From NCBI GenBank assembly GCA_001603805.1, contig LUZY01000013.1, forward strand, positions 348,723 to 412,722: 64,000 bases of DNA. Direction: 5' to 3'. The position numbers were made by a program, and so were the translations under genes. The stretch comes from Deferribacterales bacterium Deferri_01 (lineage in GTDB: Bacteria; Chrysiogenota; Deferribacteres; Deferribacterales; Geovibrionaceae). Below are positions 1,139-49,582 of the stretch, piece by piece. The notes under the pieces were generated by a model. It was not told where the DNA came from, made no database searches, and saw nothing but the letters and a program-made list of their open reading frames with translations. Within the stretch, counting starts at the first letter, position 1. Each line of letters opens with the position of its first letter.

Positions 1139-2278
1139 CTACCTGCGGTTAAGCTGTTTTCTTATGTCATTAATACTGCTTACAGAAATAGTATCATCAA
1201 CTTTGATTTCAGGCAAACGCAATCCGAATGCATTATAAAATGCTGCTCCTATCATGTCGGTATCCCCACTGGAAACCGCAAGAGACATGGTATCTGAACC
1301 ATCGGAAAGATTGTAAATTTCCAGTCTGCCTGAAATTCTCTGCTCTTCACAAAACTTTTCAAACACCCAGAAGTGAATAAATACGCCTTTGAACTTAACA
1401 GAAGAATCTGTTCTGCCAAAAACTCCTGCCAGCCGCCCGTTTTCTATAAACGATAAGTCTCCGGTTGCAAGGCGGACAAAAGGGGTTGTCCCGCTCATAA
1501 AAGTTATAACTACCTCACCTGTCTCTCCTTCTGCTGCGGGTTTTCCATCAACCGGATCAAGTATTTCTATAAACAATGTATCTGTATCCGCCTTCATGCC
1601 CCGTTCACCTGCGGTTTCGTAAGCAATAAGACCAGCCTCTGCAGTGCCGTAAGCCTGATAAGCTTTTATGCCGTAGTCACTGAAAAGAGTGAGTTTATCA
1701 TCTTCTGTTAGCTTTTCCGCCATGAGAAAAGCTTTTTCAAGCCGACTGCTGCCACCCAGTTTTTCCAGACACTTAAAAAGAAAGGTCTTAGTACCGATAA
1801 AAGCATTTGCGTTTATCAAAAGGATTGCTTCAGCTCCTTTTTCACTGTCAGCCGGACCCAGAGGATACACGGCGCATCCGCATTTCTCACATGCCTCATC
1901 AGCCATATCTCCGGCCGGACTGCCGTGGTAGGAAAAAGCATTAACCGCAATGTCTCCCTCCATAAACCCTGCCGCTTCAAGAGCTTTATAAAACCTGTAA
2001 TGTTCGTATCTTTCGCCTTTAACATTATAAACAGGACCAGGAGAGGTGAATATTTTTGAAACATAGCCTCCTGCCAAAATAAGAGGAAGAAGAGTTCCGG
2101 CAGAGTGCATTTCAGAAAGTTTCTGTTTTGTGAGAGGAGTGATAAACTGAAAGGTTTCATAGTCTTTTATGAGAGAAGGCGATATTTCAGACCGCACAAA
2201 AGCGTCCTGAATCAGCGGATGAGCAGAGTTTTCTTTTATGAACTCCAGAACACGTTCAAAATCGCCTAGGAAAGCCAT
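1139..2278 (-). CDS. PaaK-like adenylate-forming enzyme (phenylacetate-CoA ligase / coenzyme F390 synthetase family)
   Basis: 379 aa with the PaaK-family layout: an adenylation core (YGTAEAG, GETGEVVITF) and a C-terminal swivel domain. It overlaps livF by 13 nt, which implies co-translation. Confidence 0.65.
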   Translation of the reverse strand: MAFLGDFERVLEFIKENSAHPLIQDAFVRSEISPSLIKDYETFQFITPLTKQKLSEMHSAGTLLPLILAGGYVSKIFTSPGPVYNVKGERYEHYRFYKALEAAGFMEGDIAVNAFSYHGSPAGDMADEACEKCGCAVYPLGPADSEKGAEAILLINANAFIGTKTFLFKCLEKLGGSSRLEKAFLMAEKLTEDDKLTLFSDYGIKAYQAYGTAEAGLIAYETAGERGMKADTDTLFIEILDPVDGKPAAEGETGEVVITFMSGTTPFVRLATGDLSFIENGRLAGVFGRTDSSVKFKGVFIHFWVFEKFCEEQRISGRLEIYNLSDGSDTMSLAVSSGDTDMIGAAFYNAFGLRLPEIKVDDTISVSSINDIRKQLNRR

Positions 2279-3048
2279 CTTTTCCTTCTCCTGTAATGTT
2301 TGACGTCCCTGAAGCTTTTCTTTTCAGACAGACCGAGGTAAAATTCCTTCACATCGTCATTAGCCTTCAGTTCCTCTGTGGTGCCGTCAAGAACCACACG
2401 GCCATTCTCCATAATGTAACCATAATGAGCAGCAGAGAGCGCCATATTTGCGTTCTGCTCCACCAAAAGAATCGTTGTGCCCTCTTCCCTGTTAAGAGTA
2501 GTGATAATGTTAAAAATCTCTTTTACAAGCAGCGGGGCAAGACCAAGGGAAGGCTCATCCATGAGAATAAGCTTCGGAGCAGCCATAATCGCCCGTCCGA
2601 TGGCAAGCATCTGCTGTTCGCCTCCGCTCATATATCCTGCAAGCTGGCTGCGCCTGTCTTTCAGCCGGGGAAAGTAATTATAAACACGCTCCATGGCAGT
2701 TGAAACGGTATTTCCCGGACGGGTGTAGGCGCCTGCTATGAGGTTTTCTTCAACAGTGAGATCTTTAAAGACTCTTCGTCCTTCCATAACCTGAAAAATG
2801 CCTGATTTCACTATGTCTGCGGCGTCTTTTTTATCTATCCGCTCGCCGTCAAACCAGATTTCCCCGTCAGTGATCTCACCGTCATCAGGGCGCAGAAGAC
2901 CGCTAACCGCCTTAAGAGTGGTGGTTTTGCCCGCACCGTTGGAGCCAAGCAGGGCGGCTATACTGCCCTGCTTCACCTCAAGGGAAAGCCCCTTCAATAC
3001 AAGAATCACATCATTGTAAACAACTTCGATGTTGTTGATTTTAAGCAT
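2266..3048 (-). CDS. livF: Branched-chain amino acid-type ABC transporter ATP-binding protein LivF
   Basis: Walker A GSNGAGKTT, signature YMSGGEQQML and Walker B LILMDEPSLGLAP. Its length and order in the Liv operon match LivF. Confidence 0.9.
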   Translation of the reverse strand: MLKINNIEVVYNDVILVLKGLSLEVKQGSIAALLGSNGAGKTTTLKAVSGLLRPDDGEITDGEIWFDGERIDKKDAADIVKSGIFQVMEGRRVFKDLTVEENLIAGAYTRPGNTVSTAMERVYNYFPRLKDRRSQLAGYMSGGEQQMLAIGRAIMAAPKLILMDEPSLGLAPLLVKEIFNIITTLNREEGTTILLVEQNANMALSAAHYGYIMENGRVVLDGTTEELKANDDVKEFYLGLSEKKSFRDVKHYRRRKRWLS

Positions 3049-4193
3049 TATTCCGCCGATATATAGTCTGTCATGGGAACAAGTTCACCGCCTTTAACCT
3101 GATACATCTTAAGGGCTCTGACGCCTTTATGGCTCGCCGGAGTGAATGTAACAGGTGCTGTGAGTCCCATAGTGCTGAAATCCTTCATGCTTTCGAGTGT
3201 TTTCTTGATATTCTCGCCGCTGTAATTGCCGTTTGACATTTTGAGGGCGTTCAGCAGAACATACATTGAAGAAAAGCCCTGAATATAGTTCACTTCTCTG
3301 TAGGTAACTTCTGGGTGATATTTCTTATTGAGCTCACGCAGAAACTTTATTCCCTCAACATCCGTATCAGTCCAGAGGGTAAAGGCATTTGTACCGATAA
3401 AGCCTTCGGAATCCGCCCCTGTCATCTCAACCAGCTTTTTGCCGAATGTCCAGTTAAGCCCGATGAACTTTGTGGGCACATTAAGCTTTTTCGCATCTTT
3501 GAGGATTGTGGAGGTCGCCATATATGTCTGCTGAATAAACGCATAACCGGGGTTTTTCTTAGTCATATTAAGAAGCTGGCTTGTTGCATCCAGAGCCTTG
3601 AGATCCACAACCTGATTATCTATAACCTTTATTCCCAGTTCCTTTGCGCTGTTTTCGCCGTCCGGAAAAAAGGGTGAGCGACCGAAGCTTGAATCATTGT
3701 AAATAAAAGCCACGTCAGTTTTACCGCCCTGACTTTTGATATATTTAAGAGCAGCACGCACCTGATCGGAGTATGTTGCACCGACTATGAAGTTATAAGG
3801 AGCTGTTTTAGGATCTGTCACATGCTCTGAATATGATGCCGAGAAATAAGGAATCTTGTCTTTAGTGACCATCTTAACAAGGTTTTCGGTATCACCAGTG
3901 CCCCAGCCGTGGACAGCCACAACTTTCTCACGCATAAACTTTTTATATGCACTCAAGGCAGCGGGGATTTTGTATCCGTAATCAACATAGAGTATCTCAA
4001 CCGGAGCGCCGTTTATCCCTCCGTTTTCATTAAACCAGCGTACACAGTCTTTAATCCCTTCGCCGTAGGGTTTCCCAACATCGCCCGTTCCGCCGGATTC
4101 ATCCACAAGAACCCCTATTTTCACAGGTTTGGCAGCAAATACCCCGCCGGTAAGCAGAGTAAGCACCATAAAAAGTAATATCAATTTCTTCAT
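3048..4193 (-). CDS. livK: Liv-family periplasmic substrate-binding protein (LivK/LivJ-like)
   Basis: N-terminal signal peptide (MKKLILLFMVLTLLTGGVFA), followed by a type-I periplasmic binding fold typical of Leu/Ile/Val-binding or aromatic-acid-binding proteins. Confidence 0.85.
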   Translation of the reverse strand: MKKLILLFMVLTLLTGGVFAAKPVKIGVLVDESGGTGDVGKPYGEGIKDCVRWFNENGGINGAPVEILYVDYGYKIPAALSAYKKFMREKVVAVHGWGTGDTENLVKMVTKDKIPYFSASYSEHVTDPKTAPYNFIVGATYSDQVRAALKYIKSQGGKTDVAFIYNDSSFGRSPFFPDGENSAKELGIKVIDNQVVDLKALDATSQLLNMTKKNPGYAFIQQTYMATSTILKDAKKLNVPTKFIGLNWTFGKKLVEMTGADSEGFIGTNAFTLWTDTDVEGIKFLRELNKKYHPEVTYREVNYIQGFSSMYVLLNALKMSNGNYSGENIKKTLESMKDFSTMGLTAPVTFTPASHKGVRALKMYQVKGGELVPMTDYISAE

Positions 4194-9869: not shown

Positions 9870-10916
9870 TTGAGCATCACCGGAAACTACATCGACATAA
9901 ACAAAATAAGTTTCAATGTATCAATAGAGGAGTGTTTTGCAAACCTCAAGCCGCATCCGAAATTTTCAGGATGTACATTTGACAATTACATTCCCGATGA
10001 AAATTTCCCCTCACAGCACTATATCAAAAATCTGCTGAAAGAGACAGTCGAGATAATGAAAAAGAAGAATGAAAAGCCTGTCAAAAAAGGATTTTCATTC
10101 TTTAAGCCAAAAAACACATTTGAAAAACCTCTGAACATTTATATTGACGGAAGCTACGGAATCGGCAAAACACACCTTCTCAGCGCCACATACAACATGA
10201 CAGACATGAAAAAAGCCTTTATGAGCTTTTCTGAAATGAATTATTTTTTCCATTACCTTGGAGTGGAAAAATGCATTGAGGAATTCTCCAAGCTCGATCT
10301 TCTTCTTGTGGATGAGTTTGAGCTTGATGATCCTGCTATGTGCCTGATAATGGTTCGTTTCTTTAAAGAGGTAAATAAAGACACGCTGATCGTGACTACG
10401 TCAAACACCCTGCCCACCGAGCTTGGCAAGCTGCGCTTTCAGGTGGACAGGTTTGAAAAAGAGATGGGAGTAATAGCCTCTACCTTCAAAACAGTAGTTG
10501 TTGAAGGTGAAGATTACCGCAAAAAACACAAAACATGGAAACGCAATATATCTACGGAGTCGTTCTTTGACTCATTCAATAACTATACATGCGAAAGCAA
10601 AGCAAAAACACGCACCGATTTTGACAAACTCATGAAAATACTTTCTGATAATCATCCTTTCAGATACTTCATGATTCCTTCAAACTGTGAGGCGATATTC
10701 ATTGACGGGCTTACACCTTTTAAAGATCTTAACAATGCGCTGCGCTTCAACCATCTGATTGATCACTGCTACTACTATAACACTAAGCTTTTTATCAAAT
10801 CCGACTATGAATTAAAGGATCTTTTCTCTGTTGAAATGCTGGAATCACCCTTTGAAAAGAAGCTGAAAAGGTGTCTTTCGAGGCTGGATGAGCTTGCGGT
10901 GTTCTACAGAAGCTGA
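9870..10916 (+). CDS. zapE: ZapE/AFG1-family ATPase
   Basis: Walker A GSYGIGKTHLL, then LLLVDEFELDDPAMCLIMVRFF...LIVTTSNTLPTEL...DYR. This matches the AFG1/ZapE pattern (DEF..D..DAM...TSN..P..LY...DYR). Confidence 0.55.
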   Translation: MSITGNYIDINKISFNVSIEECFANLKPHPKFSGCTFDNYIPDENFPSQHYIKNLLKETVEIMKKKNEKPVKKGFSFFKPKNTFEKPLNIYIDGSYGIGKTHLLSATYNMTDMKKAFMSFSEMNYFFHYLGVEKCIEEFSKLDLLLVDEFELDDPAMCLIMVRFFKEVNKDTLIVTTSNTLPTELGKLRFQVDRFEKEMGVIASTFKTVVVEGEDYRKKHKTWKRNISTESFFDSFNNYTCESKAKTRTDFDKLMKILSDNHPFRYFMIPSNCEAIFIDGLTPFKDLNNALRFNHLIDHCYYYNTKLFIKSDYELKDLFSVEMLESPFEKKLKRCLSRLDELAVFYRS

Positions 10917-10950
10917 TTAAGCCACCCGCAGAACACCTTCGCTCAGTATA

Positions 10951-12879
10951 TTAAGAATACTTGTTTATCATTACATTCAGCTTGCCGATAAAGTTTTCAA
11001 TCTCACTCTGAAGAGCATCAAGCTCGTCAGCAGGATTTTCTTTTCTCTCAAGCATATTTTTGATTTTCTGTGCCATGGCATGTATGTTTCTGTGCGGAGC
11101 ATCCAGAGCGGCAAAGTCTGAGTCACGCCCGAACTGTTCCTCACCCTCTCCTCTCATGAACTTGGTAAAGTCACAATCTTCAAACGATTTGATATTCACA
11201 CGCTCATTGTACATATAACCGTGGTAAACAGCCTTCATCATAAGAACATGACTCGCCTTGGCATGGATAAACGGAATTATTTTAGCATCAAGGGTAAACT
11301 TTTTAAGTTCGGATTCAGACTCGTCAAGCTGCTGAACGACAACCTCAACACCTTTTACCATTTTATCTATTCCGCCGGAGTTCATTTCACTCATTTTGGC
11401 AACATCTTCAATATTAACAGCAATCTGCGATGTTGCCGCTGACTGCTGCTGAACAGCAGTAGCAATGTGCATGAGAAGACCGTTAAGCTCCTCCACAGAC
11501 GCTTTGATGTCCATGAATTTTTCATTAGCGGTTATGACCTTGCTTCCCTGAAGGTTGACTATATCAAGGGCTTTCCCTGCGTTATCGACAGCCATCTGCA
11601 CCTTTGACTGCATAGAGCTTACCACATCAGTAATATCCGCTGCGGATTTGTGTGTTTTTTCAGCAAGCTTACGTACTTCATCCGCAACAACGGCAAAGCC
11701 CCTGCCCGCTTCACCTGCCCTTGCCGCCTCGATAGCTGCGTTCAGGGCGAGGAGATTTGTCTGTTCGGTAATATCAGTTATCACCTGAACAATGTCTCCG
11801 ACTTCTGTGGATGACTTCAGCAGATCCTGCATATCATCAGCCAGAGTATTCACAAGCCCGCTTACATTTGAGGCTAATTTTGTAGTCTCCTGCATAGCTT
11901 CTCCGCCGTCTTCAGAAAGGCGAAGAGTTTCGTCCGCTTTGGTGGAGGAGTTCTGTATATTTTCTGCTGAATCACGCACAGTGGCGCTTACTTCCTCACT
12001 GGCAGCAGCAACCTCCCCCGCAAGGCGAAGGGTTTCATCGTTCATCTTCTTAATCCGCATAGCAGAAAGAGACAAAGGCAAAACCTGTTCCATAACATTG
12101 GAGATTGACTTGAACGTTCCGGTTATGTCACGTCCGATAGTTTCCATAAATTTATTGTAACGGGCGGCAATTTCACCCATTTCATCCCGTGAGGCTATAT
12201 CTGACTTGAGGCTCAAATCAAGGTTTTCCGCCGCACTGACTATCGTATTCTGAAGCCTGTTAACATTCCTGATAACCAGTTTATTAACAAGGAAATAGAT
12301 GATAAACACCAGTGCCGCACCGCAGATAAGCACAAAAATGTCAGATATATACGACATACGCTGCACACTTATGAGCGCATCACGTTTAAGCTTTACAAGA
12401 TAATATGAATTAACCTTATCCTCTTCCCAGTCTGTGTGACAGCGCAGGCAGTATCCTATGGTTTTAACAGGAAAGTGGTAAACCACATTGCCGTTATCGT
12501 TAAAGCTCTCCTCGTGTTCAGGATTAAAATTATGCTGAACCTTCGTGCCGACTTTGCCGGGTTCTGATGAATAAGCCACCAAACCGTCCGTATGCACAAG
12601 GGAAAACTCCGCCACATCATGATATTTTCCTATTTCTGAGAGCATGTTTTTAAAAACGTGCATGTTTCCTTTCTTTAGGGAGTCATAGGTGGACATGAAG
12701 ATCATATCCTTAAGCTGGTTCATATAGCCGGAAAGAGCAGTTTCAACACGGTGAAGTCTTATACTGTCAAGCACAAGCACACCGAACACAGTAACAGCCA
12801 CAAGCAGAGAGGATGCTATAGCCATTTTTACATTAAGGGAAAGACCATCCAGATAGCGCATAAAATTCTTAAAACTCAT
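10951..12879 (-). CDS. Methyl-accepting chemotaxis protein with a periplasmic c-type haem motif (CXXCH) and a C-terminal CZB-like zinc-binding domain
   Basis: Layout: TM1, a periplasmic domain of about 145 aa containing CLRCH, TM2, a HAMP-like segment and the MCP signalling domain ([32 protein letters not shown]). The C-terminal 110 aa match the CZB pattern H-x24-C-x-F-x-x-F-x21-HRNIH. The start overlaps the hydrogenase small-subunit stop by 4 nt. Confidence 0.9.
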
Positions 12880-13835
12880 CTGCGCCCTCCTTTTTCAGAG
12901 TATGTTTTAAACTCACTCCACGGAACATCCTCAACATTTTTAGCTTCAATGTATATATCAGAAGTGAAAGGCCATTTTTCATTAACACAGCCAACACAGG
13001 GAGCATTGCTCTCCACGCAGACGTTCACACTGCCGTTCCATCTTCTCGTGGGGCAATCAGCCTTTGTTATTGTTCCTCTGCACCCTTTTTTCAAGAGGCA
13101 GGAATGTTTATCTGTATTGTAGTCTTCAAGATAGATATCCTGTGAGAAATACTGAAAACGGGGACAGTTATTGTGTATAAGCTCGCCGAAGTATTTTACA
13201 GGTATGCCGTCCTTAAGTTCAGGGAGTTTTCCTGTGGCGATGAGGTATGCAACCGTACCCATAAACCTGTCCGGCTGTATGGGGCATCCGGGAATCTTCA
13301 CCAAAGGCTTTTTGATGCCGACCATCTGCATATATTTTTCAACGGACACAGCGCCGGTTTCATTCATTCCCGAAGCAGGTATTCCACCGAAGCAGGAGCA
13401 GGAGCCGCAGGCAATAACCGCAGCCGCTTTTTCCATATGCTTTTTAAGCTCATCGTATAAAGTATGCTCGCCAAGCATGCAGGCTTTTTTCATTTTCACC
13501 GGAACACTGCCTTCAACCACAAGCACATGCCCGCCCTTAGCCGATACGGTGTCAAGTATCTTAAGATAGCTTTCACCCTGACTGAAAGAAAGGTTGGGAT
13601 GAACCTGAAGCCGGATAAGCTTCATAATAAAGTCTATAAAGTTTGTTTCATTGCCATATGTCAGGGATATGGAACAGCCTGTGCAGCTTTGCCCCTGAAT
13701 GAAAGAGACCAGAGGTCTGTCGGATGCGGCTATCTTCATGAAGCCTTCGGCAATATCCGTACCGAACATCTCCACTCCGAACGCAGCAACTGAAACATCT
13801 CTGCATCTTTTGAGAAATTCTCTTCTGCTTATCAT
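12876..13835 (-). CDS. [NiFe]-hydrogenase small subunit
   Basis: Proximal-cluster motifs QSCTGCS and [11 protein letters not shown], and distal-cluster H-x2-C (HNNCPRF). N-terminal RREFLK resembles a Tat motif but is followed by a weak h-region. 319 aa. Confidence 0.9.
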
Positions 13836-13844
13836 ATCTAAACC

Positions 13845-15287
13845 CTAATGAACTGAGCAGGCTGTGCAAGGGTCAAAACTTCTCACAACCCTGCCAACCT
13901 CTATCGAGCCGCCTTCGCCGCCAAAGCGTACGGGCGTTCCTGTTATTGCCTTTTCCACAACCCCTGCTTTACCGTCAGCAGCAGGACCAAAATTCCATGT
14001 GGAAGGGACAATCATTTTATAATCAGTCACTTTACCCTTCTCCGCAGTAATGTGATGAACAAGCGCGCCTCTGGCAGCAACGGAAAAACCTATTCCCTGC
14101 CCGCTTATGGGAGCCTGAAGGTCAACAGGACGGATTGTAGGCTCATCCAAACGGAAATCCTCTGAGCGTTCAAAGAGATAATTGCACAGAATCACAGATT
14201 CGTAAGCTCTGGCAACTATCCTTGACATTGTCGAGGATGTTATGGAGGAAACACCAAGCCTTGATAAAACCGACTTAAAGCCTGCGTCATTATTTACCGC
14301 AAATCTTGCCACAGGACCGACTTCAAGAGGATAACCTTCATATCTGGGAGCCTTTATCCAGCTGTAGGCACCCTTTCTGTTTTCATCTGGTTTTCCGGAA
14401 TTGTCATAAAAAGACGCTGAGAGAAGTTCCTTAACCTTTGCATAGTCAAATTTTCTTTTTTCTCCGCCGATTATAACTCCGGCATTGAAAAGATTATTGC
14501 CCTTGGAGTTTTTGAAGGACGAGTGGGCATAAAATGTATTGTATGTTTCGCCTATTTTAAAATACTGCGGATAACGGCGTGCTATTTCAAGAGCATCCGG
14601 CAGAAAAGAATTATTTACAAAATCTGCCGTTTTCTCCAGTACGTGATAATATTTCATCAGAGTGTCGGCAGTTATCTCAGTTGTGATACCGCCGGGCAGA
14701 AGGGCGTGGATAAATGGAACTTTTCCGCCCAGAAGAGCAAGACCGGAAGCAGCTTCACTGCGTATTTTAAGCGCTTCAAAGTAATTAAGAGCAAGTCTGT
14801 ATACAGTTTCCCTGTCTCTTATATAGTCTCCTTCCGCAGCACCGCTTATGAAAGCAGTACCGGATCCGCGCATCCACCCTGCTATGTCCTTAAGACGGGT
14901 GTCATTTCCGCTGTATGTTGCTGCTACAGAAAGATCGGCATAATCAGGAAGGCAAAGATTGTAAAAGTGAAGCATGTGGTCGGTAACTATATGAAGCCCC
15001 AGAATCATGTCTCTGAGAACAACACCGTTTTCCGGCGGTGTTACACGGTATATTTCCTCCAGTGCCATAACAGAAGAGACGCCGTGAACCTCGTGGCATA
15101 CTCCGCATATGCGCTGGGCTATCCTTGCCGAGTCTACAGGATGTCTGCCAAGAAGCATTCTTTCAAAGCCTCTGTACATGTTCCCCGCAACTCTTGCACT
15201 GGTAACTGTTCCTGAATCAATTTCCGTTTCTATTTTGAGGTGTCCCTCTATTCTGGAAATAGGGTCTACGGATAAAATGCGAGCCAT
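13845..15287 (-). CDS. [NiFe]-hydrogenase large subunit lacking the C-terminal maturation extension (sensory/regulatory-type or group 4-like)
   Basis: N-terminal Ni-binding motif RICGVCHEVH. The C-terminus is ...DPCTACSVH followed directly by the stop codon, so there is no endopeptidase-cleaved tail. 480 aa, similar in size to HoxC/HupV. Confidence 0.9.
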   Translation of the reverse strand: MARILSVDPISRIEGHLKIETEIDSGTVTSARVAGNMYRGFERMLLGRHPVDSARIAQRICGVCHEVHGVSSVMALEEIYRVTPPENGVVLRDMILGLHIVTDHMLHFYNLCLPDYADLSVAATYSGNDTRLKDIAGWMRGSGTAFISGAAEGDYIRDRETVYRLALNYFEALKIRSEAASGLALLGGKVPFIHALLPGGITTEITADTLMKYYHVLEKTADFVNNSFLPDALEIARRYPQYFKIGETYNTFYAHSSFKNSKGNNLFNAGVIIGGEKRKFDYAKVKELLSASFYDNSGKPDENRKGAYSWIKAPRYEGYPLEVGPVARFAVNNDAGFKSVLSRLGVSSITSSTMSRIVARAYESVILCNYLFERSEDFRLDEPTIRPVDLQAPISGQGIGFSVAARGALVHHITAEKGKVTDYKMIVPSTWNFGPAADGKAGVVEKAITGTPVRFGGEGGSIEVGRVVRSFDPCTACSVH

Positions 15288-15450
15288 TAATCCCCCTTGT
15301 ATTACAGATCATCAAACATGGATGACACTATTTTCACTTTATTAATAAAAATTTGAACGAAATCTTACAACACGACAAATTTATGTCAACATGTATATTA
15401 GCCTTTATTATAGTGACTATTTGATAAAACAATGTTTAAATTTGTCAGAT

Positions 15451-15733: not shown

Positions 15734-16327
15734 TTATTTGTCCTTTTTTTCGAGATGTTCTTTTAAACCTTCTGTTTTCAGGAGAATTCCGATAACTTTC
15801 GCTTCTCCCGAAGGGCACTCAAGGTAGTGAGGTATACGGGAGTTAAAGGCTATTGAATCACCTTCTTCCATTTCGATTACTTCATCATTGAGATAAAGAT
15901 TAATCTGCCCTCGCTGAAGATAGACATACTCATAGCCTTCATGATTGAAAAGCTTTTTATCATTACCGCTTTCTTTGATAGTAACCATATATATCTCAAG
16001 ATTTTCAAAACCGTGTACCTTTGCCAGCTCTTCATAAATATAGCCGTGCTTTACTCCTTCGCGGAATATAAGTTTGCGGTCATTTCTTTTAACCATATGG
16101 TAGTCATTGTAGTCTATTTCTTCTTCAAAGAAGTAAGTCATTTTTACATTTAAAACTTTAGCTATTTTGGAAAGAGTGTTTATAGGTGGGGTGACAACAT
16201 TGTTTTCTATCTGGGAGATAAGAGCTTTAGAGAAACCTGTGTACGATGCAACATCCTGTAGGGTTAGCCCTCTCTGGTTTCTGATCTTTCTGACTCTCTC
16301 GCCGATTTTAATGACGTGTTCTGACAT
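15734..16327 (-). CDS. XRE-family HTH + cupin domain transcriptional regulator
   Basis: N-terminal HTH_3 (IGERVRKIRNQRGLTLQDVASYTGFSKALISQIENN) and a C-terminal cupin fold (GDSIAFNSRIPHYLECPSGEAKVIGIL). Confidence 0.8.
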   Translation of the reverse strand: MSEHVIKIGERVRKIRNQRGLTLQDVASYTGFSKALISQIENNVVTPPINTLSKIAKVLNVKMTYFFEEEIDYNDYHMVKRNDRKLIFREGVKHGYIYEELAKVHGFENLEIYMVTIKESGNDKKLFNHEGYEYVYLQRGQINLYLNDEVIEMEEGDSIAFNSRIPHYLECPSGEAKVIGILLKTEGLKEHLEKKDK

Positions 16328-24703: not shown

Positions 24704-25807
24704 TTATTGAGGAGATACAATTATTTCATAATCAGAGAATTTTTCTACCTTAAACCCTGATCTTCCGTTAAGAGACGTAGCAAGATAAAGAGTTTTTTCA
24801 GGATATGTCACCACAAGGGAATCCACACCCTGATCTTTGACCTCAAGAACCCAGCTTGTGTAAGTCAGCATCTGTTTAAGCTGCATAAGCCTGTCCATAT
24901 CCGTTTTGCCCATGAGACGCACAGTCACCATTCTGCTGTTTGCTCCCTGCATTTTTTCCATCACGATTCCCACAAGGGTCGCAGAAACAGAATCACGCAG
25001 GTTTTCGGTCATTCTGAATGTGGCGTCTTCTATTGTGGAGCCCTGCCCTCTCACCGGAATATATCCGCTGGCGAGGATCACACGGTTTCCATATTTTTCA
25101 GTTATAAGCCTGTAGGTAAGTCTGCCTGTGACCACATTGAAAGGCAGTGAAACGCCATAGCCTATATCTGCTCCCTGCTGGGCTGTGGCAGTGGTTTCAA
25201 CTTTGCCGATGAGGATTGTGTTTGAAAGATTTTTAAACGCAGCATTGCGCAGAGCAAGGTAGTCATTGGACTTCATTGCCTTTTCAAGCTCTTTTACACC
25301 AAAGCCGTTTCCGCCCGCCATATCCACAACTTCCATATTACGTGAAGTAAGTTCATTTATAACATTCTCTGAAAGTGCGCTGGATTCCTCAACTTTTCCG
25401 TTAGGAAACACTACAGGCAGCATCACAGAAATAGTTGTGTTTTTAGAAACAATGCCCACTGCACTTTCGGCTTTTGTTTTCTCAACAGTGGCAGAAATCT
25501 GAACCCTGTAGATAGAGTCATCCTTCTCCTCTCCTGTCACATTAAAGCTTTTGATAACGCCCTGAACCTCTGTTTTGATAGCCTCATCCACAAGGACAGC
25601 ATTTTGCAGTATAGTATCAGACTTTACTTTGACTCCTGCTGCTTCCTCAAGAGCTGCCCATTTTGCTCTGGCAATGGCGATTGTTCTTGCGGAGGCGGTA
25701 TCACCGCCCATTATATCAGCTTCGCCAACAGCACTTACCTTTACAGGCTGGGCATAAACAGCCGTACACATAAAAGCTGAAATAAGCAGAATAATCAGTT
25801 TTTTCAT
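24704..25807 (-). CDS. Secreted protein with an N-terminal LPP20/FlgP-like domain
   Basis: Signal peptide MKKLIILLISAFMCTAVYA. The LPP20/FlgP-type pattern is VSAVGEADIMGGDTASARTIAIARAKWAALEEAAGVKV. 367 aa, 22-bp gap to the cyclase gene. Confidence 0.5.
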   Translation of the reverse strand: MKKLIILLISAFMCTAVYAQPVKVSAVGEADIMGGDTASARTIAIARAKWAALEEAAGVKVKSDTILQNAVLVDEAIKTEVQGVIKSFNVTGEEKDDSIYRVQISATVEKTKAESAVGIVSKNTTISVMLPVVFPNGKVEESSALSENVINELTSRNMEVVDMAGGNGFGVKELEKAMKSNDYLALRNAAFKNLSNTILIGKVETTATAQQGADIGYGVSLPFNVVTGRLTYRLITEKYGNRVILASGYIPVRGQGSTIEDATFRMTENLRDSVSATLVGIVMEKMQGANSRMVTVRLMGKTDMDRLMQLKQMLTYTSWVLEVKDQGVDSLVVTYPEKTLYLATSLNGRSGFKVEKFSDYEIIVSPQ

Positions 25808-25827: not shown

Positions 25828-26553
25828 TTATTTAAGAAACGTAAATACAATTTTAACATCCGCATCTGACCCAAGGAGTTTTTTAAGCTCTTCCGATGCG
25901 GTTTTACCAAGATAAACATCTGTATAGGAAACTACTCTCTCCGCATTCAGAGACAGAGGCTTTCGCCTGCCTTCCTGAAAAAGCATGGTGACAGCATCCG
26001 GCAGATCTGCAACATAAACCGGGTGGGAAAATGTTCTGTTCCAAAGCTCATTACCGTCAGCAGAATAAAGTCTGTTTCCCAAAGCCGGAACAAAGCTTCC
26101 TATTGCTGTATTAATTATAACAGAATCATACTCTGCGAAGCTTCCGTTATCATAAGCCTCCGGCGCGGACAAGGTTCTTCCTGCCAGAACATCAAGAGGA
26201 TCAATCCTTCCTGATAGACAATAATAACCTTTTTTACTTTCTTTGTCGTATATTCCTTTGCCTTTACAGGAAGAAAGAGAGGAAAGAAGCTCTCTGAAAA
26301 CCTGCTCGGATTCATTATCAAATAATGCTGTATCTTCAAGGGTTCTAACTCCGCTTACGGGGAGATCGGATAAAACAGCATGAGCCTTTTCTTCTGCCTC
26401 GATCCTTGCCCTTGTGAGGGCATCGCCCATCTGCAATCCTTCTGCGGATTCGCCTATAACAGTTATTTTTCCGCTGTTGAGAATGTCAATATAGCTCAAT
26501 GTCTCCTGCGGGAAAAAGCTGTCAGCTCCGTAAGAACAGACAGAAAGCGCCAT
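25828..26553 (-). CDS. Hypothetical protein with an LPP20/FlgP-like segment. The N-terminus is uncertain.
   Basis: VIGESAEGLQMGDALTRARIEAEEKAHAVL resembles the LPP20 family. There is no clear signal peptide from the annotated ATG. The in-frame upstream stretch ...IRPKLTVLFFLMALSVC looks signal-like but contains no canonical start codon. Confidence 0.4.
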   Translation of the reverse strand: MALSVCSYGADSFFPQETLSYIDILNSGKITVIGESAEGLQMGDALTRARIEAEEKAHAVLSDLPVSGVRTLEDTALFDNESEQVFRELLSSLSSCKGKGIYDKESKKGYYCLSGRIDPLDVLAGRTLSAPEAYDNGSFAEYDSVIINTAIGSFVPALGNRLYSADGNELWNRTFSHPVYVADLPDAVTMLFQEGRRKPLSLNAERVVSYTDVYLGKTASEELKKLLGSDADVKIVFTFLK

Positions 26554-35107: not shown

Positions 35108-35782
35108 TTAAGCTGTCACATCAACAGGCTGCTGCGCTGCTGCTGTTATCTCTTCTTTATGGGCGTCTATCTTCTCCATGAGAAGTTCAAGGGTATCCAC
35201 GCAAACCTGCGGCATTTGCCCTATCTGGTTTTCCACACTTTTATAACCTTTAACCGCACCTTCACGAGCCTGTTCAAGCCTTTCGGGGTCGCCACCCGCT
35301 ATGGATTTTATGAAATCGAAAATCCTTCCTGATGTTTTTTCCGCACCCCAATAAGCATCATCACCAAAGTAATTATCATAGGTGTCAGTGGGTTCTTCTG
35401 AAACTAACCCCTCTTCCATGGATATTTCAATGGAAGAGTAGCTGAACCTGAAACCTTCGCTTACTTTGGAGTGTTCACTGTTTTGCTCAGAAAAGGCTTC
35501 GATGGTAATAGATTGAATCTTCATTTTGAAGCCTTGGTAATTCAAACCTTCACTCTGGGAGCTTTCATTATTCAGATAAGAGGCAAAACTCTGCGCCCCC
35601 TCTTTCAGCCCTGCTATATCAAGGATAAAAGCTGAACCGCTGCTCACATATCTGCTTCCTGCTTTATTTCCTGTATTATATGCCGGAGCAGTGGTGGCTC
35701 CTTCTTTTGATGATGTCCGTTTTGATGAATAGGCAGTTGCCTCAAAACGGGTACTGGTCATGTTCAGCGTCATTGACTGCAT
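35108..35782 (-). CDS. Hypothetical protein (Ser/Thr-rich N-terminal half, acidic C-terminal half)
   Basis: 224-aa ORF, apparently monocistronic and bracketed by terminators. No recognisable domain. Confidence 0.5.
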   Translation of the reverse strand: MQSMTLNMTSTRFEATAYSSKRTSSKEGATTAPAYNTGNKAGSRYVSSGSAFILDIAGLKEGAQSFASYLNNESSQSEGLNYQGFKMKIQSITIEAFSEQNSEHSKVSEGFRFSYSSIEISMEEGLVSEEPTDTYDNYFGDDAYWGAEKTSGRIFDFIKSIAGGDPERLEQAREGAVKGYKSVENQIGQMPQVCVDTLELLMEKIDAHKEEITAAAQQPVDVTA

Positions 35783-46865: not shown

Positions 46866-48134
46866 TTAATTGAATACGTTACCAATACGCACTTCCTCAG
46901 CTTCCCATTCGGCAGGTTCGCTTGAGCCTAAGTTTCTCTCTATACCGATTACAGAACCGTAAAATGAAAGAGTCTGGTCCTCGAACTCGTAATTAAGAGC
47001 AATCATCTCTATATTCTCTTCATTATCATCAATATATTTTCCAAAAAACAGAATACTGTCTTCTCTTGTATCTATAAAACCTTTGAAAGTATCATCCCCT
47101 TCGGTGAGTGTAACGTTGCAGCCATCCTGCACAATAGTCACTGTGCCGTTGTCTTCCTCTATTTCAGTAGGGTCATTGCTGCTTATAATGCGAGAAATGA
47201 AAGGCATATCTGTAACAGAGAGGTCAACACTTGAGCATGAGGGATCTTCGGGGTTAGCCCCTACAGCACGTTTCATGGTTGCTGTTGCAGTGCATGAGCC
47301 GTCCTTGGGTGAAAAAGTCATAAGAAACTCACTGGAATCCGTGTATTCCATAGACATATTATATTCAGGCATACCCGTCTCAGTATATTGACGAAGAACA
47401 GCGGAATTAGGATCAGTCAGGTTTCCTGAAAAGAAGTCAATGTTCTCAATCACCTGTTTCACTGAGGCTGAAGACAAGCCGGAAGGAAGAGTGGATGGTT
47501 GCTTTGAATAGTTTGCAGAAATGGTGTAAAGGTTAACTGAGCCTCCGGTTAAATAAGCTATGAATCTTTCAGTTGTGTTATCCTCACCATCGCACACAAT
47601 ATTAACTTCGGCAGCATATACACCGTAAAGTGCATCGGAGTTCATATTGCCTATTGCCACATCCTCGTCTATGAGGTTGAGAGTGTCAAAGCTGCCAGCA
47701 AAATCGTCAAGCTCTGTTTCCTCAGTCACAAGACCGTTAATGTCATCCACAGCCGTTTCATTCATTATAAGAGTACCGTTATCCACCGAGCTGAGAGTCT
47801 GGATAAGTCTGGCAATAAGAACAGCATTGTTATGATCTGTTATATCAAAGGGGGTGATATAAGTAGCAGCGGGCGCACTTCCCAGAACAAGATTGCCTAT
47901 TCTGAAAGTTACAGTATCGCCTTCATTGAACAGGAATTTGCCTTCCGCATCGGTAAAGCCTGAATACCCGCTGGGTGAAGTGGAATAAGCTATGCCCGCC
48001 ACAGGTGCATCAACAAAAATACCTGTTGATGAAGGGGCGGATGGTTCACTGCTGCTACTGCTGCTTCCGCCGCAGCCGTAAATAAAGAGTGATAAAAGCA
48101 TAGCACTGAGTGCCGTTAAGATTATTTTGTGCAT
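46866..48134 (-). CDS. Lipoprotein, paralogue A of the tandem pair (CarboxypepD_reg-like N-terminal beta-sandwich motif)
   Basis: Signal peptide and lipobox (LLSLFIYGCGGSSSSSSEPS). TDAEGKFLFNEGDTVTFRIGNLVLG motif. ATG start 6 nt after GGAGGT. The track ORF begins at an upstream GTG. Confidence 0.7.
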   Translation of the reverse strand: MHKIILTALSAMLLSLFIYGCGGSSSSSSEPSAPSSTGIFVDAPVAGIAYSTSPSGYSGFTDAEGKFLFNEGDTVTFRIGNLVLGSAPAATYITPFDITDHNNAVLIARLIQTLSSVDNGTLIMNETAVDDINGLVTEETELDDFAGSFDTLNLIDEDVAIGNMNSDALYGVYAAEVNIVCDGEDNTTERFIAYLTGGSVNLYTISANYSKQPSTLPSGLSSASVKQVIENIDFFSGNLTDPNSAVLRQYTETGMPEYNMSMEYTDSSEFLMTFSPKDGSCTATATMKRAVGANPEDPSCSSVDLSVTDMPFISRIISSNDPTEIEEDNGTVTIVQDGCNVTLTEGDDTFKGFIDTREDSILFFGKYIDDNEENIEMIALNYEFEDQTLSFYGSVIGIERNLGSSEPAEWEAEEVRIGNVFN

Positions 48135-48175
48135 AAGCACACCTCCGCAGAAATTATAATCATTTCCAATATTTA

Positions 48176-48284: not shown

Positions 48285-49541
48285 CTAATCTACAGGAAAG
48301 TAAATATCGACTTCCTCTATTGACCATTCAGCAGGTTCATTTGAGTTTAAGTTTTTTACTACTCCCATCACTTCTCCTTCAAACTCAGGATACAAATGTG
48401 TTACATTGTAGTCCATAGTAATCGTTTCAATATTCTCTTCATTATCTTCAGTATAGGTTCCGATTAATAAAATCCTTTCAGCTTGAGTATCTACAAAACC
48501 GGTAAAAGTGTCGTTCCCTTCTGTAAGAGTTACATTGCAGCCATCCTGCACAATTGAGACTGTTCCGTTATCCTTATTAAGCAGATTCTCTGAATTACTG
48601 CTGCCAATTATAATGGACCTGAAAGGAATGTTTGCTACAGATACATCAACGCTTGAGCATGTGGGATCATCAGAATTGGCACCTAAGACACGTACCATGT
48701 CCGCAGTTGCAGTGCAGGAACCGTCGCTGGATGAAAGAGTCATTTGAAACTCGCTGGAATCGGTATACTCCATAGACATATTGTATTCAGGCATATCCGC
48801 TTCTGTATATTGATGAAGCACTGCAGAATTAGAATCTGTTAACTCTCCTGAGAAGAAATCAAAACTATCTATAGTTCTTATGCCAGAAGGAGATGATAAG
48901 CTGTTGAAACCATTCAACCTATGTTCTATTGCATAAATTTTTACCTTTCCAGCACTGATAACAACACCGAACTCTCCTGTTACATTGTCTTCACCTTCAC
49001 AAACAACAGTAGCAAGACCGGAATAAGCTCCGTAAAGAGCATCTCCATTCATATTTCCTATTGCCACATCCTCGTTTATAAGATTGAGGGTATCAAAACT
49101 CCCTGCAAAATCGTCAAGCTCTGTTTCCTCTGTCACAAGACCGTTAATGTCATCCACGGCTGTTTCATTCATTACAAGAGTGCCGTTATCCTCCGAGCTG
49201 AGGGTCTGGATAAGTCTGGCAACAAGAACAGCGTTTGTTCGGTCTGTTATGTCAAAGGGTGTGATATAACTAGCCGCAGGCGCACTTCCCAGAACAAGAT
49301 TACCTATCTTGAAAGTTACCGTATCGCCTTCATTGAACAGGAATTTACCTTCCGCATCGGTAAAGCCTGAATACCCGCTGGGTGAAGTGGAATAAGCTAT
49401 GCCCGCCACAGGTGCATCAACAAAAACACCTGTTGATGAGGGGGCGGATGGTTCACTGCTGCTACTGCTGCTTCCGCCGCAGCCGTAAATAAAGAGTGAT
49501 AAAAGCATAGCACTGAGTGCCGTTAAGATTATTTTGTGCAT
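48285..49541 (-). CDS. Lipoprotein, paralogue B of the tandem pair
   Basis: The N-terminal 160 aa or so are near-identical to paralogue A (same lipobox and leader, nucleotide-level identity). The central region is divergent and the C-terminal motifs are shared (NGTV.IVQDGCNVTLTEG.DTF). Confidence 0.7.
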   Translation of the reverse strand: MHKIILTALSAMLLSLFIYGCGGSSSSSSEPSAPSSTGVFVDAPVAGIAYSTSPSGYSGFTDAEGKFLFNEGDTVTFKIGNLVLGSAPAASYITPFDITDRTNAVLVARLIQTLSSEDNGTLVMNETAVDDINGLVTEETELDDFAGSFDTLNLINEDVAIGNMNGDALYGAYSGLATVVCEGEDNVTGEFGVVISAGKVKIYAIEHRLNGFNSLSSPSGIRTIDSFDFFSGELTDSNSAVLHQYTEADMPEYNMSMEYTDSSEFQMTLSSSDGSCTATADMVRVLGANSDDPTCSSVDVSVANIPFRSIIIGSSNSENLLNKDNGTVSIVQDGCNVTLTEGNDTFTGFVDTQAERILLIGTYTEDNEENIETITMDYNVTHLYPEFEGEVMGVVKNLNSNEPAEWSIEEVDIYFPVD

Positions 49542-49582
49542 AAGCACACCTCCGCAGAAATTATAATTATTTCCAATATTTA

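Follow-up and report, generated by a model that had tools for sequence, protein, structure and literature searches.

A conserved gene unit of an extension-less [NiFe] hydrogenase and a transducer with a periplasmic CxxCH domain is a candidate H2 sensor

The genes considered here lie in a window of 64,000 nucleotides, the whole stretch of DNA analysed, of Deferribacterales bacterium Deferri_01 (contig LUZY01000013.1, positions 348,723 to 412,722). They code for the large and the small subunit of a [NiFe] hydrogenase and for a methyl-accepting chemotaxis protein (MCP) and follow each other in this order as a three-gene unit on the minus strand (Table 1). The initial annotation had described a large subunit of about 480 residues, a gap of 9 nt to the small subunit gene and an overlap of 4 nt with the MCP gene, and these sequence statements are all confirmed. 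The overlap has the form ATGA, in which the start codon of the MCP (12879..12877) shares bases with the stop codon TGA of the small subunit (12878..12876). As read from the sequence, a Shine–Dalgarno-like AAGGGGGA precedes the ATG of the large subunit. Further upstream a promoter-like site is the best match in an AT-rich region of 446 nt; it is weak evidence, because the scan returned 13 sites while 10.8 are expected from shuffled sequences. The unit is surrounded by housekeeping genes. Among 46 open reading frames of the window that were scanned against Pfam (five more, at 19.9–31 kb, were read only) we found no hyp, maturation protease, histidine kinase, che or cytochrome genes, so that the earlier statement on the lack of hyp and histidine kinase genes holds over these 46 frames. 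Genes for cytochrome c3, cytochrome b, a membrane anchor or a protease are absent from the unit and from the scanned part of the window.

Table 1. Features of the hydrogenase–MCP unit (positions in the window)
Feature	Position	Strand	Remarks
Promoter-like site	15362..15389	(-)	TTGACA, 16 nt, TAAGAT; consensus match only, 10/12
[NiFe]-hydrogenase large subunit	13845..15287	(-)	480 aa; PF00374, E = 6e-95
L1 Ni-site motif RICGVCHEVHG	15081..15113	(-)	residues 59–69
L2 Ni-site motif DPCTACSVH	13845..13874	(-)	residues 472–480, TAG directly after
Gap between large and small subunit genes	13836..13844		9 nt
[NiFe]-hydrogenase small subunit	12876..13835	(-)	319 aa; PF01058 and PF14720
Tat signal-like N-terminus of small subunit	13719..13835	(-)	residues 1–39, ends IAA/SD
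MCP	10951..12879	(-)	642 aa
TM1 of MCP	12766..12825	(-)	about residues 19–38; hydrophobic stretch, K/R on N-terminal side; predicted
Periplasmic sensor domain	12337..12768	(-)	residues 38–181; single-Cache fold with haem-c binding motif
Met73 in KKGNM	12661..12663	(-)	invariant; candidate distal haem ligand
CLRCH (C144-x-x-C147-H148)	12436..12450	(-)	predicted covalent haem-c attachment motif
TM2 of MCP	12283..12348	(-)	about residues 178–199; hydrophobic stretch, then K/R; predicted
HAMP	12136..12285	(-)	residues 199–248; 19.7 bits, below cut-off 25
MCP signalling domain	11392..11856	(-)	residues 342–496; PF00015, E = 1.5e-42
C-terminal CZB (chemoreceptor zinc-binding)	11062..11250	(-)	residues 544–606; PF13682, 31.4 bits, cut-off 29.4

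The large subunit ends with ...RSFDPCTACSVH, followed by a TAG stop codon. No residue lies beyond the His of the nickel site in any of the 104 homologues with intact C-terminus (42–91% identity). The missing C-terminal extension, already claimed in the initial annotation, is therefore not an artefact of a frameshift or of sequencing; it is fixed throughout the clade. The clade is also marked by the signature CHEVH: of the 106 closest homologues, 105 contain R[IVT]CG[VI]CHE[VA]H, whereas the L1 motif contains C[PT]xxH in group 1 references and CSVSQ in group 2b. In 199 of 200 bootstraps the clade was monophyletic. It is nearest to the periplasmic group 1a/[NiFeSe] enzymes and stands apart from group 2b, which it joined in just 9 of 200 bootstraps. 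The best sequence match and closest solved relative is a periplasmic [NiFeSe] hydrogenase, HysAB of Desulfovibrio vulgaris Hildenborough (PDB 5jsu_B, E = 7.6e-81), and the identity amounts to 35–42% with group 1a-like enzymes as against 29–33% with HoxC/HupV. The active site and the gas channel (V/L, not I/F) look as in an ordinary catalytic enzyme, and the status of a low-turnover sensor is thus not marked by the sequence alone. In the large subunit the active site is complete and of the group 1 type, and a C-terminal extension is lacking. The order of large before small subunit gene, which had been thought atypical, is normal for the clade and for its nearest neighbours.

The small subunit has Cys and His ligands for three FeS clusters. 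Invariant are C51, C146, C184, H221, C224, C246, C252, C273, C280 and C283, and C54 and C261 are nearly so (at least 90%). An extra Cys is present, as in those [NiFeSe] enzymes whose medial cluster is of the 4Fe type. The protein begins with MISRREFLK, and the initial annotation took RREFLK for a remnant on a cytoplasmic protein. However, 116 of 120 homologues retain RRxF(L/I/M)K, and in three of the other four the sequence can be seen to start only downstream of the signal. Distant members of the clade bear textbook Tat signals, for example SRREFLKLGAQMAALLGVGAAMGPKAASA. The motif RRxFLKxC has the same form as in HoxK. In the AF2 model the first 40 residues are outside the confident fold (pLDDT 52–65 at residues 1–40, 88 from residue 41). 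The h-region of the window protein is short with 8 uncharged residues before a Glu, the family median being 12. Taken together, the hydrogenase is probably exported to the periplasm. We know of no documented Tat-exported [NiFe] hydrogenase with an extension-less large subunit; in known hydrogenase systems cleavage of the extension comes before assembly and export.

The periplasmic CxxCH motif of the MCP had been missed in the earlier reading of the sequence, and its presence changes the interpretation. The family of the sensor domain comprises 64 clusters among 1.84 billion representatives; CxxCH is found in every complete member, and its Cys, Cys and His are invariant in the family alignment. 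This family is rare and tightly defined. Its domain is always N-terminal and leads into an MCP in 43 of 63 homologues, besides GGDEF/EAL and kinase outputs, with HAMP found in 41 of the 63. The sequence match to GSU0582 of Geobacter sulfurreducens is weak (E = 0.56), and the family profile aligns with that protein in register (GNM with GDM, CxRCH with CQSCH). Met73 thereby aligns with the Met of GDM, which by our own count from the alignment is Met60 of the literature. The domain stays under the Pfam thresholds of PF11845 and PF21563; the window domain gave no hit and a relative 16.1 bits (cut-off 24.1). A homologue, P0148 (33% identity, CLSCH), belongs to an MCP at locus L025 without adjoining hydrogenase, so that the sensor domain is able to function with no such enzyme at its side. 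The C-terminal CZB domain is faintly present also in the orthologue of Denitrovibrio acetiphilus.

We then compared 12 related loci, the window included, at 37–72% identity of the large subunit. In all of them the genes follow in the order large subunit, small subunit, signalling protein, while the flanking genes differ at each locus. The transducer is an MCP at eight loci (window, L002, L011, L012, L015, L017, L019, L026), a PAS-HisKA-HATPase kinase at two (L016, L027) and a (PAS-)GGDEF(-EAL) protein at the remaining two (L018, L028). Thus, in the synteny check the hydrogenase is co-conserved with a transducer, which is not always an MCP. Common to all partners are only TM1, a periplasmic domain of about 140 residues with sCache fold, and TM2. 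Nine of the partners were aligned, and all nine have G, M, F, FSL, YSS, P, CxRCH and W of this domain in common; CxxCH was read in the three further ones. The divergence of the sensor domain tracks that of the small subunit (r = 0.94, 45 pairs). The suggested contact of the hydrogenase with the cytoplasmic domain of the MCP is unlikely, since MCP, kinase and GGDEF partners share just the periplasmic CxxCH domain and the two transmembrane helices. A neighbouring member of the extension-less clade, L024, has the large and small subunit genes without a transducer. We regard the hydrogenase as having a functional link with a signal transducer and as a good candidate for an H2 sensor.

Several known systems share parts of this arrangement. 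With the group 1a [NiFe]/[NiFeSe] enzymes the window enzyme has in common RIEGH and HFYxL, the Tat-type signal of the small subunit, the extra Cys of the medial cluster, and that it is a soluble, anchor-less enzyme with a c-type haem protein as presumed electron acceptor. It differs in the lack of a C-terminal extension and of a protease gene, in Cys instead of Sec, in CHEVH instead of CPxxH in L1, and in the presumed acceptor, a one-haem sensor domain of a transducer instead of cytochrome c3; NCBIfam NF033181 matches it with 433 bits, under the family cut-off of 600. On the side of the receptor, DcrA of Desulfovibrio vulgaris, an MCP with c-type haem for which O2 or the redox potential has been proposed as the stimulus, resembles the window MCP in its periplasmic CxxCH haem domain and its anaerobic host. 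To our knowledge DcrA has no hydrogenase partner. GSU0582 and GSU0935 of Geobacter sulfurreducens have, like the window MCP, a periplasmic single-Cache fold between two transmembrane helices, and together with the sCache_haem family (DUF3365/Tll0287, PF11845) they share with it a single CxxCH and a conserved Met some 70–80 residues upstream. The outputs of sCache_haem proteins also cover the same range of MCP, kinase and GGDEF/EAL. The helix with CXXCH is placed between β3 and β4 in the sCache_haem preprint and between the fourth and fifth predicted strands in the window model, two numberings that are not reconciled. The haem c of GSU0935, a paralogue of GSU0582, is ligated by His144 and by Met60, the redox-switching distal ligand, and both Geobacter proteins change their spin state upon reduction (PMC8396549). 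The literature examined on this family makes no mention of a hydrogenase partner.

We lean towards the view that the unit is a periplasmic hydrogen receptor in which the hydrogenase reduces the haem of the receptor with H2. The folded heterodimer of large and small subunit would leave the cytoplasm via the Tat pathway, and haem c would be bound covalently in the Cache domain. H2 would then be oxidised at the Ni-Fe site and the electrons passed via the three FeS clusters to the sensor haem, which would stand where cytochrome c3 serves related periplasmic hydrogenases. On reduction the ligation of the haem could change from His/water (high-spin) to His/Met (low-spin), as is reported for the homologous Geobacter sensors. 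The conformational change might travel via TM2 and HAMP and reach CheA through the MCP signalling domain, and swimming would be biased with respect to H2; in the relatives the same input of hydrogenase and sensor would be passed on to a histidine kinase at some loci and to a c-di-GMP enzyme at others. Because periplasmic acceptors can re-oxidise the haem, the read-out may be the balance of H2 supply and electron sink. The binding of the haem, the export, the passage of electrons and the taxis are all inferred. The unit suggests that bacteria sense H2 by electron flow from an enzyme to a chemoreceptor, a mode of sensing of which we found no description in the literature searched.

Other explanations have to be weighed against this hydrogen receptor. 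An ordinary energy-conserving uptake enzyme of the periplasm could feed a soluble pool of cytochrome c, with the haem-Cache transducer merely co-expressed and sensing alone; its stimulus would be a gas or the redox state of the periplasm, and the operon would mediate energy or redox taxis without direct electron transfer from enzyme to receptor. The catalytic motifs and gas-channel residues of group 1 type, the catalytic [NiFeSe] enzymes as closest solved relatives, the orphan sensor at L025 and the transducer-less L024 would agree with such an enzyme. We nevertheless think it unlikely, as the unit is kept at all 12 loci with three types of output, the sensor domain and not the output being retained, as it comes without genes for cytochrome c3, cytochrome b, anchor or protease, and as the loss of the extension is fixed in the clade. 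For uptake, Deferribacterales are moreover reported to have separate hydrogenases, which are of the Hyb type and are accompanied by a protease and by hyp genes (PMC13186404). It is also conceivable, if rather improbable, that the ferrous receptor haem senses NO, CO or O2 and that the hydrogenase is a dedicated haem reductase, H2 being a co-factor and not the signal. A two-subunit Ni-Fe enzyme would be costly for this task because anaerobic periplasms offer many other reductants, and among the neighbours of the unit no gene related to gases is conserved. Yet haem-Cache domains of the Tll0287/GSU0582 family fused to transducers bind NO and are reported to act as NO sensors (PMC12889525), the Geobacter sensors bind CO only if reduced, with Met60 displaced by the ligand (PMC8396549), and the sensor family of the window has kept this Met as well as CxxCH.

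The initial annotation had instead pointed to the regulatory hydrogenases HoxBC/HupUV, which belong to HydDB group 2b (HoxBC-HoxJ of Cupriavidus necator, HupUV-HupT). These are likewise signalling-dedicated [NiFe] hydrogenases beside a transducer gene, their large subunit also ends at the nickel-site His and is of similar size (485 aa, 480 aa in the window), and the relatives at L016 and L027 likewise precede a PAS-HisKA-HATPase kinase. The enzymes of group 2b, however, are cytoplasmic, their small subunit has a C-terminal tail and no Tat signal, the gene order is small subunit, large subunit, kinase, the motifs are RVEGD, CGICSVSQ and HFYLF instead of RIEGH, CHEVH and HFYxL, and the conserved element of the partner is a cytoplasmic PAS domain instead of a periplasmic haem domain. 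The window enzyme shows none of the 2b signatures, and together with the low identity and the few bootstraps uniting it with 2b this argues against the proposed kinship. Hence we disfavour as very improbable a cytoplasmic sensor of this type which touches the cytoplasmic part of the MCP and carries RREFLK as a dead remnant. The weak h-region of the window protein would fit it, but not the RRxF[LIM]K motif of the homologues with the canonical signals of distant members, nor the partners, whose cytoplasmic parts are unrelated whereas the periplasmic domain is conserved. Of the H2-responsive module proposed earlier, the link of hydrogenase and transducer stands, and the cytoplasmic sensor of HoxBC/HupUV type gives way to a clade of its own with a Tat motif.

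The idea of a hydrogenase feeding into c-di-GMP signalling or chemotaxis is shared with two further HydDB classes, [NiFe] 2c (diguanylate-cyclase-linked) and [FeFe] C2 ('chemotactic', MCP-linked), both putatively sensory and proposed from gene context only. The C2 proteins are [FeFe] hydrogenases and thus unrelated to the window enzyme. The published description (PMC4853749) gives SFDxCLVCTVH as the L2 consensus of group 2c and a cytosolic location for group 2. The clade of the window, in contrast, has DPC[TLIMV]AC[SA][VI]H in L2 and a Tat signal, and its members at L018 and L028 precede GGDEF(-EAL) proteins.

The three genes of the unit encode, in this order, the large and the small subunit of a [NiFe] hydrogenase and an MCP (see the table of features). 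Only 9 nt lie between the two hydrogenase genes, and the TGA of the small-subunit gene overlaps the ATG of the MCP gene. Both Ni-Fe ligand pairs (RICGVC and DPCTAC) are present in the large subunit, whose last codons read DPCTACSVH and are followed by TAG. Coordinates and Pfam matches agree with the initial annotation in the gene order, the gap, the overlap and the terminal histidine. In the MCP, two transmembrane helices can be read from the sequence upstream of the signalling domain, and the HAMP match scores 19.7 bits, which is below its Pfam cut-off. We scanned 46 ORFs across the 64-kb window with Pfam and found no hyp, maturation protease, kinase, che or cytochrome gene among them; the absence of kinase and hyp genes had already been noted. 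The scanned ORFs are housekeeping genes, including those for branched-chain amino-acid ABC transport, MutS2, the PfkA region, aconitase, ClpB, a sigma factor and MreBC/PBP2/RodA.

Features of the hydrogenase unit and of its surroundings (window coordinates)
Feature	Position	Strand	Evidence
[NiFe] large subunit, 480 aa	15287..13845	-	PF00374 E 6e-95
Small subunit, 319 aa, starts MISRREFLK	13835..12876	-	PF01058 E 1.3e-25, PF14720 E 6.7e-26
MCP, 642 aa	12879..10951	-	MCPsignal PF00015 E 1.5e-42, HAMP, C-terminal CZB
CZB (chemoreceptor zinc-binding) of the MCP	11062-11250	-	31.4 bits, cut-off 29.4
Inverted repeat GGTGTTCT...AGAACACC	10905-10950		loop of ~24 nt
HTH_3 + cupin regulator gene	15734-16327	-	
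CHASE2 + adenylate/guanylate cyclase membrane protein, 695 aa	22594-24681	-	
ORF without Pfam match	24704-25807	-	E up to 1e-5
ORF without Pfam match	25828-26553	-	E up to 1e-5
ORF without Pfam match	35108-35782	-	E up to 1e-5
ORF without Pfam match	46866-48140	-	E up to 1e-5
ORF without Pfam match	48285-49547	-	E up to 1e-5
ORF without Pfam match	1139-2278	-	E up to 1e-5

A search of 5.8 billion proteins retrieved relatives of the large subunit from MAGs and isolates of Deferribacterales, Desulfuromonas and Thermosulfurimonas and from many metagenome contigs. Within Deferribacterales, the identity to the window protein is 70% in Denitrovibrio acetiphilus and 72% in Seleniivibrio woodruffii, and Geovibrio-labelled transducer fragments are 90-93% identical. 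We analyzed in more detail the 106 nearest relatives of the large subunit (identity 42-91%), which form with the window protein what we call the CHEVH clade after its L1 Ni-site motif. This motif, R[IVT]CG[VI]CHE[VA]H, is found in all but one of them. The C-terminus is intact in 104, and all 104 end exactly at the Ni-site histidine. An extension hidden by a frameshift can thus be dismissed, as in the window the TAG directly follows the histidine codon and the small-subunit ATG comes 9 nt later, and the intact homologues are all alike.

Judged from its motifs, the CHEVH clade combines a group-1-type core with a 2b-like loss of the extension. The N-terminal RIEGH and the gas-channel motif HFYxL (HFYNL in the window) are those of the group 1 references, whereas group 2b has RVEGD and HFYLF with its narrow I/F gas channel. 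After the second cysteine of L1 the clade reads HEVH (CGVCHEVH in the window), as against [PT]xxH in the group 1 references and SVSQ in 2b (CGICSxSQ). The Ni-site histidine is followed by a stop in the clade and in 2b and by about 15 residues in the group 1 references. For the phylogeny, a distance-based NJ tree with 200 bootstraps covering groups 1a/1c/1d and 2b only, we used as references HoxG (1d) and HoxC (2b) of C. necator, HybC (1c) of E. coli, the C. acetobutylicum pSOL1 enzyme, the [NiFeSe] enzyme HysA of D. vulgaris (rebuilt from a PDB alignment), an annotated Azospirillum HupV and three of seven 2b-like loci. These seven loci stem from a single-protein scan of the genome collection, which also gave two close loci. 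The CHEVH clade is monophyletic in 199/200 bootstraps and the 2b sequences in 200/200, and both are joined in only 9/200. Within the groups covered the clade is therefore separate from 2b, and a placement with HoxC/HupV does not hold; the NJ tree supports this separation and no particular place among the group 1 subgroups. The similarity scores agree with the tree, being highest for periplasmic [NiFeSe] enzymes (275 bits), followed by standard periplasmic [NiFe] enzymes (about 240), Hyd-2 (214) and Hyd-1 (190), and lowest for Huc (2a; 146). With the model NF033181 the window large subunit reaches 433 bits at a cut-off of 600.

A second set of large subunits without extension (~40% identity, L1 motif CP[IV]xH) comprises the proteins P0108, P0112, P0115, P0116, P0118 and P0119 and those of the contigs L024 and L026. 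It is interleaved with canonical enzymes bearing an extension of 14-15 aa. An MCP with a haem-Cache domain follows in L019 and L026 and not in L024 (6001-8501). The extension may have been lost more than once; monophyly was seen in just 64/200 bootstraps.

The small subunit has a Tat-type start. RRxF[LIM]K is kept in 116 of 120 homologues, and three of the four exceptions visibly begin downstream of the signal. Thus, the RREFLK of the window is hardly the remnant for which it had been taken. The window signal has the form RRxFLKxC, like that of the membrane-bound hydrogenase HoxK, and more distantly related small subunits bear canonical Tat signals such as SRREFLKLGAQMAALLGVGAAMGPKAASA. In all of these proteins the first cluster cysteine comes only after about 45 residues, whereas HoxB and the 2b small subunits readable in five of the seven loci (L003, L004, L007-L009) begin right at the fold (NVLWLQSGGCGGC). 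In the AF2 model the residues 1-40 have a pLDDT of 52-65 and the fold starts at residue 41. As criterion for a Tat signal we used S/T-R-R-x-F-L-K followed by an h-region of moderate hydrophobicity and by a cleavage site. The uncharged h-region extends over eight residues before a Glu in the window and in its closest relatives, with a family median of 12. With its conserved motif and an h-region which is adequate in the family and short in the window, the small subunit is a candidate Tat-exported protein. There is no C-terminal anchor or tail on the window small subunit. Across 56 small subunits the Cys/His ligands of the three FeS clusters are invariant or nearly so. Among them are the His of the distal cluster and, at the medial cluster, an additional Cys, an arrangement known from [NiFeSe] enzymes. 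Small subunits of the Thermosulfurimonas type (L017 7477-8418, P0271, P0277) have C-S-G-D/E instead of C-x-G-C at the proximal cluster. In these clade members the cluster would be altered or would have Asp or Glu as a ligand.

The initial annotation had proposed a sensory enzyme of the HoxBC/HupUV type (group 2b). Of this reading the missing large-subunit extension stands, and membership in 2b is ruled out by the motifs, the gene order, the NJ tree and the small-subunit start. Unlike the window protein with its Tat-type start and no tail, the 2b small subunit is cytoplasmic, carries no signal and has a C-terminal extension. The order large, small, MCP differs as well from the 2b order small, large, PAS-histidine-kinase: small before large is readable in five of the seven 2b loci, an ORF of ~455-470 aa, by reading consistent with a kinase, follows in four of these five, and L020 and L023 have an adjacent gene annotated as 'ATP-binding protein'. 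Group 2 enzymes are described as cytosolic, and 2c has the L2 consensus SFDxCLVCTVH (PMC4853749). Membership in 2c, whose enzymes are encoded next to GGDEF/EAL genes, is ruled out on this published motif only (SFDPCTACSVH in the window); the Tat signal and the MCP partner are further differences. The closest similarity is to group 1a [NiFe]/[NiFeSe] enzymes, with which the window enzyme shares the Tat-type signal. Unlike these, it lacks the extension, which in group 1a a specific endopeptidase removes, and, in the scanned part of the window, a protease gene, stays below the NF033181 cut-off and belongs to a separate clade.

We read the neighbourhoods of 12 loci, which belong to the CHEVH clade or to the extension-less enzymes nearest to it. 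In all 12 the large and small subunit genes are followed within a few nt by a gene for a membrane signalling protein, and the flanking genes are different at each locus. Hydrogenase and transducer are thus co-conserved well beyond this genome. The output is an MCP in the window and in L002, L011, L012, L015, L017, L019 and L026, a PAS-HisKA-HATPase kinase in L016 and L027 and (PAS-)GGDEF(-EAL) in L018 and L028. Common to nine aligned partners is only the N-terminal module, namely TM1, about 140 residues and TM2. This speaks against the suggested contact of the hydrogenase with the cytoplasmic part of the MCP. The divergence of the sensor domain correlates with that of the small subunit (r = 0.94, 45 pairs), which is compatible with inheritance as a unit, although adjacent genes would co-vary anyway.

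The MCP contains, between its two hydrophobic helices, the c-type haem attachment motif CLRCH (residues 144-148), which the initial annotation had missed. Invariant in the nine aligned partners are, in window numbering, G71, M73, F76, FSL, YSS, P, C144-x-R-C147-H148 and W151, and the motifs were also read in three further partners. No Pfam family matches the window sensor domain at E up to 10. A word-indexed search with the sensor profile gave eight fragments, and we used an exhaustive phmmer search over 1.84 billion representatives instead. It yielded only 64 clusters, with the domain always at about residues 30-180 and with CxxCH in every complete member. Of 63 members, 43 have an MCP output; GGDEF/EAL, kinase and, in one case, hemerythrin occur besides. 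The AF2 model of the domain (pLDDT 91.3) has a Cache fold with CXXCH on a short helix (domain residues 107-110). Fold and strictly conserved CXXCH on a short helix are as in sCache_haem (PF11845; GSU0582/GSU0935); unlike members of that family, the window domain has no significant match to the family model, and its best relative scores 16.1 bits at a cut-off of 24.1. Our family profile aligns with GSU0582 non-significantly (E 0.56) and fully in register, pairing KKGNM with AGDM, FSL with LRI and CxRCH with CQSCH. By count from this alignment the aligned methionine sits at the position of Met60 in GSU0935, whose haem ligands are His144 and Met60 (PMC8396549). In both Geobacter sensors reduction turns the haem from high-spin to low-spin, which is ascribed to binding of Met60, and the methionine is displaced by CO or NO (PMC8396549). 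The sCache_haem family (DUF3365/Tll0287) was defined in a 2026 preprint, in which fused members are reported to act like NO sensors and stand-alone ones like redox proteins and which makes no mention of hydrogenases (PMC12889525). On the 6.8-kb contig L025 an MCP (1652-3577; P0148) that shares the haem-Cache domain (33% identity, CLSCH) and also has CZB is flanked by an aminotransferase gene and cstA, and no hydrogenase is present; the sensor domain thus occurs on its own too. CZB is faintly recognizable in the D. acetiphilus orthologue as well as in P0148, and was not reported for the other partner MCPs. The receptor may take a second, cytoplasmic input via CZB, such as zinc or an oxidant.

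The export signal on the enzyme, the haem c motif and the restriction of the partners' shared part to the periplasmic module point to the same compartment for hydrogenase and sensor. In known systems haem c is matured only outside the cytoplasm (Ccm/Ccs). The nearest characterised hydrogenases reduce periplasmic c-type cytochromes. In the simplest reading the sensor haem would be the electron acceptor. We suggest the following course of events. The heterodimer would be exported to the periplasm by the Tat pathway, and haem c would be attached covalently to the Cache sensor domain. Electrons from the hydrogenase could then reduce this haem, and a redox-linked switch of the methionine ligand could be the signal, with H2 taxis as the probable output in the window. 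The arrangement of the genes, the conserved motifs, the fold and the separate phylogenetic position are results of the analysis; export, haem attachment, electron transfer, ligand switch and H2 taxis are inferred. We rate the chances of this model as a whole, which is built on sequence comparison, at slightly better than even.

The unit might instead combine a common uptake hydrogenase with a redox sensor that works independently of it. The catalytic-type motifs, the orphan sensor MCP of L025 and the extension-less pair without transducer in L024 would fit, but the linkage in 12/12 loci across output types, and the absence of cytochrome, anchor and protease genes from the unit and the scanned part of the window, make such an arrangement unlikely in our view. 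Still less probable is a gas sensor whose haem is merely kept ferrous by the hydrogenase, a role for which the NO and CO chemistry of related haem domains could be invoked. The cytoplasmic HoxBC/HupUV-like sensor proposed initially conflicts with the lineage of the large subunit, the conservation of the Tat motif and the shared module being periplasmic only, and we regard it as very improbable.

Hydrogen is a central currency in anaerobic communities. To our knowledge, no bacterial H2 sensor has been proven apart from the HoxBC/HupUV-kinase system, which is cytoplasmic and belongs to aerobic H2 oxidisers, and all H2-sensor classes of HydDB appear to be cytoplasmic in design. Among these, 2b is proven and 2c and [FeFe] C1-C3 are putative. 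Within the literature searched, H2 taxis is shown only in a methanogen, with no receptor given (PMC3817446), and we found no description of a hydrogenase-MCP or hydrogenase-haem-sensor unit like this one and no paper in which a [NiFe] hydrogenase with a Tat signal is connected with a haem-Cache transducer; an earlier mention is possible. A 2025 neighbourhood survey tabulates an MCP gene cluster near [NiFe] hydrogenases, and a term search of it gave no MCP-related text (PMC12727194). New would be a hydrogenase-based sensor joined to a haem-Cache receptor, in another compartment and with another coupling logic. We see even chances that this is a new class of H2 receptor, in which an entire Tat-exported [NiFe] hydrogenase acts as 'ligand-binding' co-receptor and passes electrons as the signal to the haem c in the periplasmic Cache domain of a modular transducer (MCP, histidine kinase or c-di-GMP enzyme) in Deferribacterales, Desulfuromonas, Thermosulfurimonas and metagenomic lineages. 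Bacterial H2 chemotaxis would gain its first molecular route, and the enzyme would be the first extension-less [NiFe] hydrogenase known to operate outside the cytoplasm and would challenge the rule that periplasmic [NiFe] hydrogenases require C-terminal processing ahead of export. If true, an exported redox enzyme could report its substrate by reducing a sensor haem as a general principle, and one input would drive motility, gene expression or c-di-GMP, depending on the lineage. A hydrogenase-linked branch would be added to the recently recognised haem-binding Cache domains. The unit is a concrete candidate H2 receptor in the cultured Denitrovibrio acetiphilus DSM 12809, Seleniivibrio woodruffii and Thermosulfurimonas sp. 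F29.

Public annotations of this hydrogenase family are misleading. The D. acetiphilus large subunit (P0006) is named 'Cytochrome-c3 hydrogenase', and several small subunits from Desulfuromonas MAGs (P0235, P0249, P0252, P0272) are named 'hyaluronate lyase'. In a Denitrovibrio sp. MAG the hydrogenase unit has hypC and hypD (L014/L015 204-1491) about 6.5 kb upstream, on the other strand and adjoining a gene for an NrfH-like multihaem cytochrome; the lineage thus possesses maturation genes, though outside the unit. In the window, the CHASE2 cyclase is a signalling gene amid housekeeping genes, and six ORFs of 224-424 aa have no Pfam match. The HTH_3-cupin gene is located 446 nt upstream of the hydrogenase, on the same strand. 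It is kept in a 91%-identical MAG (L001), and at this place Seleniivibrio (L012) has an HTH_3-only gene and D. acetiphilus rubrerythrin, with neither HTH nor cupin. We did not adopt the regulator as a component of the system, as it is conserved in the closest relative only. The inverted repeat directly after the MCP stop overlaps the end of a convergent AFG1-like ATPase gene; it was found by eye, is absent from the terminator-scan list, and may be a terminator common to both genes.
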